DNA from: a virus
Taxonomy: Duplodnaviria; Heunggongvirae; Uroviricota; Caudoviricetes
Virus record (IMG/VR): IMGVR_UViG_2540341028_000007
Strand: one strand, 5' to 3'
DNA: 18,485 nt
Part shown: piece by piece, positions 16,637 to 18,485 of the stretch
Numbering within the stretch: the first letter of the stretch is position 1
Layout of the letters: each line of letters opens with the position of its first letter
Translations under genes and position numbers: made by a program
Notes under the pieces: model-generated
What the model was told of the DNA's origin: nothing
Seen by the model: the letters and a program-made list of their open reading frames with translations, nothing else
The model's database searches: none

Positions 16637-17523
16637 TGCCACTGCTGGATAAGCTGCGTAAGCTGTACGGGGTCGGACCGGTATGCAGTGAACTACATAT
16701 TGCCCCGTCAACGTATTACCACTGTCAGCAACAGCGACATCATCCTGATAAACGCAGTGCCCGTGCGCAGCGCGATGACTGGCTGAAGAAAGAGATACTG
16801 CGCGTATACGATGGGAATCATCAGGTATACGGTGTGCGTAAAGTCTGGCGTCAGTTGTTACGGGAAGGTATCAGAGTGGCCAGATGCACTGTGGCACGTC
16901 TCATGGCGGTTATGGGACTTGCCGGTGTTCTCCGGGGTAAAAAGGTCCGTACGACCATCAGCCGGAAAGCCGTTGCCGCAGGCGACCGCGTAAACCGTCA
17001 GTTCGTGGCAGAACGACCTGACCAGCTGTGGGTGGCTGATTTTACTTACGTCAGCACATGGCAGGGCTTCGTCTATGTGGCGTTCATTATTGATGTGTTT
17101 GCCGGATACATCGTGGGGTGGCGGGTCTCATCGTCCATGGAAACGACATTCGTGCTGGATGCTCTGGAGCAGGCGTTATGGGCCCGTCGACCGTCCGGCA
17201 CGGTCCATCACAGTGATAAAGGTTCTCAGTATGTATCGCTGGCCTACACACAGCGGCTTAAGGAAGCCGGATTACTGGCATCAACAGGAAGTACAGGCGA
17301 CTCGTATGACAACGCGATGGCGGAGAGCATCAATGGTCTTTACAAAGCGGAGGTAATACACCGTAAGAGCTGGAAAAACCGTGCAGAAGTGGAACTGGCC
17401 ACACTCACGTGGGTGGACTGGTATAATAATCGACGATTGCTGGAAAGGCTGGGCCACATCCCTCCGGCAGAAGCAGAAAAAGCTTATTATGCTTCCATCG
17501 GAAACGATGATCTGGCAGCCTGA
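16633..17523 (+). CDS. IS3-family transposase OrfB (DDE catalytic domain, IS629-type)
   Basis: 296-aa ORF in the -1 frame relative to orfA; sequence [10 protein letters not shown]...[34 protein letters not shown]...[11 protein letters not shown]...[22 protein letters not shown] recognised from memory as IS629 OrfB with the DDE motif region. Confidence 0.9.
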
Positions 17524-17565
17524 GTTCACAGATAAAACACTCTCCAGGAAACCCGGGGCGGTTCA

Positions 17566-18190
17566 GTTCTTCGGTATTCATGGCGCGCTGGCGCTGACCG
17601 CACTGGACAACGGCATTATGACGCTGTGGGCGCTGGAAAATATCGCGACCTATCAGCAATATGGTTCCGTCGAAGCGGCGCTGGCAGCCGGTAAGACCTT
17701 CCATATCTGGGCCAAGCCGATGCTGGACTCCTTTATTTTCCTTGGGGGCAGTGGTGCGACTTTAGGCCTGATCCTGGCTATCTTTATCGCCTCTCGCCGT
17801 GCTGATTATCGTCAGGTGGCAAAACTGGCGCTGCCGTCCGGCATCTTCCAGATTAACGAACCGATTCTGTTTGGTCTGCCAATTATCATGAACCCGGTGA
17901 TGTTTATCCCGTTTGTACTGGTACAACCGATTCTGGCGGCAATCACCCTCGCAGCGTACTACATGGGCATTATTCCTCCGGTGACCAATATTGCACCGTG
18001 GACCATGCCAACCGGTCTGGGAGCCTTCTTTAACACCAACGGTAGCGTCGCTGCATTGCTGGTCGCACTCTTCAACCTTGGTATCGCAACGTTAATTTAT
18101 CTGCCCTTTGTTGTGGTGGCTAACAAAGCGCAAAACGCGATTGATAAAGAAGAGAGCGAAGAAGATATCGCTAACGCCCTGAAATTTTAA
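17566..18190 (+). pseudogene. chbC: PTS chitobiose/cellobiose-specific EIIC component, 3' fragment (last ~207 codons), 5' part removed at the IS629 junction
   Basis: From 17567 the frame reads [56 protein letters not shown]...[22 protein letters not shown], which I recognise as the ChbC C-terminal half. The junction falls inside a codon (g at 17566 would complete a Trp codon). ORF-track entry 17381-18190 starts inside the IS and is not the native start. Confidence 0.85.
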
Positions 18191-18240
18191 TCGATGCCGG
18201 TACGGTTAATCGTGCCGGTAAGAAGAGAGAGGAACGATGT

Positions 18241-18485
18241 ATGATGGATCTCGATAACATTCCCGATACGCAAACAGAAGCTGAAGAGCTGGAAGAAGTG
18301 GTGATGGGGCTTATCATCAACTCCGGACAAGCGCGCAGCCTGGCGTATGCGGCACTGAAACAGGCGAAGCAGGGCGATTTTGCCGCAGCAAAAGCCATGA
18401 TGGATCAGTCACGGATGGCATTGAATGAAGCGCATCTGGTACAGACGAAACTGATTGAAGGCGATGCGGGCGAAGGTAAGATGAA
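18241..18485 (+). CDS. chbA: PTS chitobiose-specific EIIA component, 5' portion (continues beyond the window)
   Basis: ATG at 18241 preceded by gagagaggaa; translation MMDLDNIPDTQTEAEELEEVVMGLIINSGQARSLAYAALKQAKQGDFAAAKAMMDQSRMALNEAHLVQTKLIEGDAGEGKM matches ChbA as I recall it. Sits 50 nt downstream of the chbC stop, as in the chb operon. Confidence 0.85.
   Translation, partial: MMDLDNIPDTQTEAEELEEVVMGLIINSGQARSLAYAALKQAKQGDFAAAKAMMDQSRMALNEAHLVQTKLIEGDAGEGKM

Follow-up and report, generated by a model that had tools for sequence, protein, structure and literature searches.

The 18,485-bp stretch of DNA analyzed here (the window) is the whole of draft contig AERO01000013.1 from Shigella flexneri serotype 6 strain CDC 796-83 (assembly GCA_000193935.2), and its right-hand end carries what is left of chbBCARFG (formerly cel), the operon of the N,N'-diacetylchitobiose phosphotransferase system (PTS). 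We are confident that this region is a non-functional relic of the operon, 922 bp long, lying between the right end of an IS629 insertion sequence (IS) and the left end of an IS1. The relic comprises chbC codons 245/246–452 followed by chbA codons 1–82. Nothing in it is predicted to work: the enzyme IIC (EIIC) fragment has lost residues 1–245 of 452, the enzyme IIA (EIIA) stub is without its presumed phospho-acceptor histidine, and no chb gene comes after it. An earlier description, made by a model from the letters of the window (the sequence-only reading), had presented the locus as a chitobiose PTS operon decapitated by IS629 and continuing into an intact chbA. What it observed was confirmed in part, in that the IS629–chbC junction and the open reading frame (ORF) crossing it stood while the intact chbA did not, and its interpretation was likewise supported only in part.

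The chbC remnant occupies positions 17566–18190 (+ strand), beginning with the third base of codon 245 (nt 735) and continuing through 207 complete codons (246–452) to the stop at 18188–18190, which agrees with the ~207 codons counted in the sequence-only reading. From 17566 onward, the window aligned without gaps to chbC–chbA of E. coli d1-58, with seven mismatches over 920 nt (99.2% identity); one of these substitutions is non-synonymous (P265L in chbC), four are synonymous (three in chbC, one in chbA), and two are intergenic. The chbC–chbA spacer and its ribosome-binding site are those of the E. coli operon. Unlike E. coli chbBCARFG, the window retains only chbC codons 246–452 and chbA codons 1–82, and the promoter, chbB, the chbB–chbC spacer and chbC codons 1–245 are not adjacent. 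The sequence-only reading was right that this junction lacks chbB, the promoter and the 5' part of chbC; to the left of IS629 lies a prophage capsid gene, of which the 3' part is left. By orthology the fragment is chbC, but it does not hold the complete EIIC domain of the 452-aa protein: its match to PF02378 is limited to profile positions 212–317 of 319, the last third of the EIIC profile, in line with the view that the truncated EIIC cannot be functional.

The claim of an intact chbA, on the other hand, proved wrong. Only codons 1–81 plus 2 nt of the 116 codons lie in the window (18241–18485, + strand, with the native ribosome-binding site upstream), and the stub matched PF02255 at profile positions 1–62 of 94, the first two thirds. 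The contig stops 2 nt short of an IS1 junction that is seen in identical external sequences. Identity to the window extends over 918 nt in the Logan contig L006 and over 948 nt (17538–18485) in both L009 and L010, likewise Logan contigs; all three come from other sequencing runs (at least 20 in the case of L009) and reach the last base of the window. L006 and L009 then run on with AG and the IS1 terminal repeat GGTAATGCTGCCAACTTACTGATTTA, and L010 ends after AG. This 26-mer is the left end of IS1, and a 76-nt query starting with it matched annotated IS1 transposase places at 100%, which puts IS1 at codon 82/83 of chbA. The predicted product, an 83-aa stub made of ChbA residues 1–82, a Gly and a stop supplied by IS1, was found on 72 contigs, including complete Shigella chromosomes, with S. 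boydii among the source names. The phospho-acceptor of ChbA, which we take to be His89 (in LVLVHAQDH), falls six codons past the break; ChbA is here an 82-codon stub without this residue and not a complete IIA domain.

Looking up the 83-aa stub led to ten Shigella chromosomal loci (L011–L020), which were aligned to the intact nadE–pfkB region of E. coli (L021, the reference). All ten have the same order: chbB, IS1 (reverse), chbC'–chbA', IS1 (forward), the end of ydjO, and tcyP/ydjN. Their left segment corresponds to reference positions 1–1690, ending 8 nt past the chbB stop; the middle segment to 2270–3422, from chbC nt 504 to chbA nt 247; and the right segment to 10339 onward, that is, the last 112 nt of ydjO and then tcyP/ydjN, which is on the opposite strand and convergent. 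Two deletions, each with IS1 in its place, are thus present in every one of the ten. The first, of 579 bp (reference 1691–2269), removed the chbB–chbC spacer and chbC codons 1–167, and the second, of 6,916 bp (reference 3423–10338), removed chbA codons 83–116, chbR, chbF, chbG, katE, cedA and most of ydjO. Losses in the second deletion therefore extend to katE (catalase HPII) and cedA. The two IS1 copies that bracket the chbC'–chbA' remnant are inverted relative to each other in all ten loci (at ~8328–11015 in most). Of 5426 complete E. coli genomes, 5393 have an essentially complete chb stretch, with at least 80% query coverage.

These relatives argue against IS629 as the killer of the operon, the role given to it in the sequence-only reading. 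Although both IS1 deletions are present in all ten loci, chbC is free of IS629 in seven of them, and the remnant in one of the seven (L019) is 100% identical to that of the window; by parsimony, therefore, IS629 came after operon death. In the other three (L014 and L017, both at 8014–9323, and L018, at 5496–6805), IS629 lies within the remnant in the same orientation as in the window and is flanked by a clean 3-bp duplication (...GCTCTG, IS629, CTGGTTCTTCGG). L018 is from CP026811.1, the chromosome of S. flexneri 64-5500, which is also serotype 6, is the closest complete genome, and holds the truncated capsid junction as well (L002). In 64-5500, chbB survives ~2.3 kb upstream of the 3' part of chbC, with IS1, a 231-bp middle piece of chbC and IS629 in between, so that chbB is absent at the junction as claimed but, in this relative, not lost from the genome. 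The chbC remnant of 64-5500 also contains an IS66-family element (L018, 7153–9661) with an 8-bp duplication, and a further IS629 lies inside its cystine transporter gene tcyP/ydjN (L018, 12156–13465) with CAC on each flank.

We propose that two IS1 copies with adjacent deletions would have destroyed the operon in the ancestor of the S. boydii / S. flexneri serotype 6 clade, that IS629 would later have inserted near codon 245 of the already dead chbC remnant, and that in this contig IS629 may have come to join the chb remnant to a prophage capsid gene either through an IS629–IS629 inversion or through an assembler error. The coordinates, identities and mismatched IS629 flanks were read directly, as were the arrangement in relatives and the IS1 junction of the identical sequences; that CDC 796-83 itself carries both IS1 deletions, and that the events followed this order, is what these observations suggest. 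The predicted loss of chitobiose uptake likewise appears sound. Several points weigh against this account. The downstream IS1 was not read in this assembly and is deduced from the contig end together with the identical external contigs, and the upstream IS1 deletion lies outside what the window shows. At the junction of the window, GTTCTTCGG follows the IS629 right inverted repeat (IRR), whereas in 64-5500 IRR is followed by CTGGTTCTTCGG, so that the window cannot simply share the history of the closest complete genome. It is unlikely that CDC 796-83 has another copy of chb somewhere else in its genome.

IS-driven pseudogenization and deletion accompany Shigella genome reduction, and the setting of Shigella-like reduction surmised from the letters was borne out by the source, a serotype 6 S. 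flexneri. With its IS1, IS629 and IS66-family insertions and IS-adjacent deletions, the chb locus is a typical instance of this process with nothing to distinguish it; ordinary IS-mediated decay of a Shigella sugar-utilization locus is a finding already known in kind. The result records that the S. boydii / S. flexneri serotype 6 clade lost the chitobiose PTS locus, katE, cedA and ydjO by deletions linked to IS1, and is of small significance beyond such bookkeeping. A genomic/transcriptomic comparison that includes serotype 6 does not mention chb.

The IS629 at the junction is complete (IS3 family; 16256–17565, 1310 bp, + strand) and is oriented from its left inverted repeat (IRL; TGAACCGCCCCGGGAATCCTGGAGA, 16256–16280) to its IRR (reverse complement TGAACCGCCCCGGGTTTCCTGGAGA, 17541–17565). 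Its ends are TG...CA, and the 25-bp inverted repeats agree at 23 of 25 positions. Over 1310/1310 nt it is 97.9% identical to the annotated IS629 of phage BP-4795; identity to the “insertion sequence:IS3 family IS629” of Stx2_499 is 97.4%, and other copies in serotype 6 genomes differ from it by 0–2 mismatches. The element encodes orfA (16310–16636, +; 108 aa; HTH_Tnp_1, PF01527) and the DDE transposase orfB (16633–17523, +; HTH_21, PF13276; rve, PF00665; rve_3, PF13683), and at 16591–16707 (+) it carries ALIL, the pseudoknot that stimulates frameshifting in IS3-family elements (Rfam RF01497; 116 bits, with a gathering cutoff of 50); a 97%-identical IS629 copy bears the RefSeq annotation “programmed frameshift.” By identity, by length and termini, and by orfA/orfB with the frameshift element, it is an IS629, sharing with the element known from phage BP-4795, E. 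coli O157 Stx phages and Shigella (also called IS1203v) the same length, 97–98% identity, the orfA/orfB plus ALIL arrangement and the TG...CA ends.

Where the window copy departs from its kin is in its flanks. Other IS629 copies of the lineage have 3-bp duplications (TAC, GTT, CTG, CAC), whereas this one has none, its left flank being ...GGGTTAC (TAC) and its right flank GTTCTTCGG (GTT). A missing target duplication is a property of the insertion event and leaves membership in IS629 unaffected; the unequal flanks mean that the copy is recombinant or chimeric, joining two loci, and not a simple insertion. A separate difference lies at position 1307 of the element (window 17562), inside the terminal repeat, where the tip of the window copy reads ...GGTTCA and that of both the capsid-adjacent and the chb copies of 64-5500 reads ...GGCTCA; this variant is a possible marker for tracing the origin of IS629 copies. 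Insertion of IS629 into chbC is not confined to Shigella: E. coli Z1323PEC0008, from a cat, has a 97%-identical IS629-like element in chbC near codon 90 (L001, 4891–6200) with an ACA duplication, in an otherwise intact chb operon. That insertion is independent of the one in the window and shows that such insertions occur in E. coli too.

The ORF said to begin in IS629 and enter the chbC frame does so. It spans 17381–18190 (+; 269 aa, GTG start) as called mechanically, and begins in a frame other than that of orfB, its first 61 codons being out-of-frame IS629 and the remainder in the chbC frame. The deposited coding sequence EFW62226.1 (“chitobiose-specific IIC component,” 227 aa) begins at the ATG at 17507; it is a chimeric pseudogene fragment, its first 20 codons being IS629 sequence. 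No convincing ribosome-binding site precedes the in-frame starts at 17381, 17489, 17507 and 17618. Exact-product look-ups found no record of the fusion ORF from starts 17381, 17489 and 17537, and returned matches from starts 17507, 17618 and 17540; the 227-aa fusion product is known from one contig only. The IS629–chbC junction was not found in complete E. coli genomes, where the sole match with 100% coverage (H1) reflects a separate IS629-like insertion elsewhere in chbC, and exact-pattern scans gave none in GTDB representative genomes and none in JGI metagenomes, collections that probably lack serotype 6 Shigella. As for the missing half of the gene, a homologue search with ChbC 1–245 plus the predicted read-through tail gave no representative with the N-terminal half fused to the IS629 left end, a result that carries no information, since the clustering places fragments with the full-length protein. 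Ten exact candidate N-terminal fusion sequences were absent from the protein collection, because the relatives are without chbC codons 1–167 and their junction reads ...PLLCEPP... and not ...PLLWFEPP....

That IS629 decapitated a working operon, and that an outward promoter of IS629 now drives a chimeric ChbC' and intact downstream chb genes, strikes us as very improbable. The ORF at 17381–18190 does remain open across the junction, and a relaxed scan found a perfect extended −10, TGGTATAAT, at 17419–17427 (+), which points outward from 139 nt inside the IS right end; no plus-strand terminator-like site lies between it and chbA, a consensus scan of 17300–18485 having given none. However, the consensus scan gave no sigma-70 promoters either, the −35 that goes with this −10 is poor (GCCACA, 3/6 match, 18-nt spacer), and the in-frame starts are, as described, without good ribosome-binding sites. 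Among the loci compared, TGGTATAAT occurs only in Shigella IS629 copies; since the W-Y-N codons of orfB make it up, and since a synonymous substitution turns it into TGGTATAAC in an IS629 variant of E. coli, it is probably fortuitous. The invariance of the remnant across at least 20 runs could be taken in favor of an expressed locus, but is expected from recent common ancestry. Genomes without IS629 in chbC share the IS1 deletions, which places the death of the operon before the arrival of IS629, and with chbA a stub and chbR, chbF and chbG deleted in all relatives, the aberrant transcription of downstream chb genes raised by the sequence-only reading has no target. An activating promoter borne by an IS acts on an intact downstream gene; what follows here is chbC', the 82-codon chbA stub and then, in relatives, IS1 and the convergent, opposite-strand tcyP/ydjN.

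A degree of read-through is plausible, but before reaching IS1 the resulting RNA would specify no more than the truncated EIIC and the 82-residue IIA stub, and transcription leaking from IS629 may thus yield junk RNA or peptide without expected consequence. The cryptic chb operon is reportedly activated for cellobiose use by mutations and by IS insertions in regulators. The likeness to the window is that an IS adjoins chb genes and that expression might depend on it. Such activation needs intact chbBCA and chbF, whereas the structural genes in the window are fragments, so that activation is impossible here; activation of the cryptic operon for cellobiose use is also a subject of PMC4488073. 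With regard to an outward promoter of IS629, PMC9330008 mentions the element only for IEE-mediated excision.

On its left, IS629 cuts the HK97-type major capsid gene of an SfII-like prophage, leaving the 3' part (~210 codons and the stop) at 15621–16255 (− strand; mechanical ORF 15621–16232). This fragment covers PF05065 profile positions 86–280 of 280 and, as far as 16255, shares 99.9% identity with the intact gene of E. coli 40EC; in the intact prophage the capsid gene reads on from ...GGGTTAC into CGTAGATTT. An identical truncated capsid product has index entries in 149 blocks of the collection. In CCH060 the capsid piece TACCGTAGATTT adjoins another IS629, and the capsid insertion therefore once had a TAC duplication that was later split by an IS629–IS629 inversion. 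Both CCH060 and 64-5500 have the capsid halves beside two inverted IS629 copies ~7 kb apart (L003, 401–1722 and 8668–9977; L002, 8668–9977), with flank pairs that are swapped (GTT...TAC and TAC...GTT), which is the signature of an IS629–IS629 inversion inside the prophage region. In these two genomes, the right end of the capsid IS629 faces another locus, GTTACCGTGACGG (the flank string in 64-5500 being GGCTCA followed by GTTACCGTGACGG), and the join to chbC is found only in the present contig.

We consider it somewhat probable that this capsid–IS629–chbC join is a real rearrangement in CDC 796-83, in which homologous recombination between inverted IS629 copies would have turned ~450 kb around, or transposition would have mediated an inversion, bringing the chb remnant next to the oacC prophage. 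In 64-5500 the capsid copy (1.51 Mb; L002; IS on the minus strand) and the chb copy (1.06 Mb; L018; IS on the plus strand) are mutually inverted and ~450 kb apart, their strands being comparable because both loci are in the same record orientation, and one inversion between them yields the exact order and strands of the window. The same prophage had, moreover, already undergone one IS629–IS629 inversion, the one seen in CCH060 and 64-5500. Yet no other assembly has the link, the fusion product is on a single contig, the capsid IS629 is joined to a different locus in CCH060 and 64-5500, and with IS copies that differ by at most 2 nt a true and a false join look alike in sequence.

It is also quite possible, if not the explanation we would choose, that two real junctions of different IS629 copies were merged by a 2010-era draft assembler, in which case the true 3' part of chbC would have ahead of it what 64-5500 has, namely IS629, the 231-bp chbC middle piece, IS1 and chbB. 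Such a chimera would explain how a contig bounded by repeats at both ends nevertheless passes through a 1310-bp, multi-copy, near-identical repeat at which every short-read assembly breaks (e.g., the 15.9-kb L004 and the 976-bp L009), and why the related complete genome has a different linkage. Mate-pair data could, however, legitimately bridge 1.3 kb, and IS-mediated inversions are common in the lineage, with one documented in this prophage. Because the IS629 copies differ by 0–2 nt, internal single-nucleotide differences are uninformative on recombination vs. chimera; the junction strings for telling the two apart are CCACTGCTCTG joined to TGAACCGCC and CCACTGCTCTGGTT joined to TGAACCGCC. 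AERO01000013 is used in the literature for the oacC prophage, and an end formed by either a strain-specific inversion or a misassembly calls for caution when the contig is used for synteny.

The only mildly unusual point of the locus is that the IS629–chbC junction exists in three variants, which fall within 5 bp of each other in near-identical remnants. In the first, seen in 64-5500 and others, IRR is followed by CTGGTTC with a clean CTG duplication. The second, in which IRR is followed by GTTC without CTG, is that of the window (17565/17566) and also of L009, with its at least 20 runs, and L010. In the third (L006, 1–36), IS629 is in the opposite orientation and IRL is followed by TCTTC (joined at TCTTCGG). 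Since homologous recombination between IS copies leaves flanks unchanged, the variants are due either to separate insertions or to new insertions next to a copy already in place, with recombination afterwards. It is tempting, if doubtful, to read the site as a record of IS629 self-targeting in natural populations, in which new copies would insert beside the right end of a resident one and adjacent copies would recombine, leaving small changes in the flank; the target GGTTC resembles the IS tip GGTTCA. Independent insertions at a hot spot would look identical. IS911, of the same IS3 family, reportedly inserts next to its own inverted repeats, and the clustering of the IS629 junctions (three within 5 bp, one of them inverted) is similar. 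If true, the site would be a field example of IS911-type self-targeting and of a mechanism that builds the IS clusters driving Shigella rearrangements.

Given that the window is a complete contig, both of its ends are assembly breaks at repeats and not arbitrary cuts: a partial IS629 lies at 1–636, and IS1 directly past 18485. The contig begins inside the former element (− strand; 100% identical over 636 nt), whose ALIL pseudoknot is at 185–301. Next comes a degenerate transposase remnant (~637–1250), assigned to the IS630 type (PMC4206707), directly upstream of oacC (1456–2604, +), a low-GC acyltransferase-3 gene of 382 aa (PF01757). AERO01000013 has been described as the contig with the oacC-bearing SfII-like prophage remnant of a serotype 6 strain, its IS629 is already published, and oacC is the O-antigen 3/4-O-acetyltransferase gene specific to S. 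flexneri serotype 6 (PMC4206707). The tail and head-completion module of the SfII-like prophage (4999–16255) is 99.85% identical to the E. coli 40EC prophage. Within it, a G-to-A change at 13012 coincides with a stop that breaks up the tail sheath gene, leaving ORFs of 142 and 337 aa in place of one ~498-aa gene, and the prophage is therefore defective beyond the truncation of its capsid gene.

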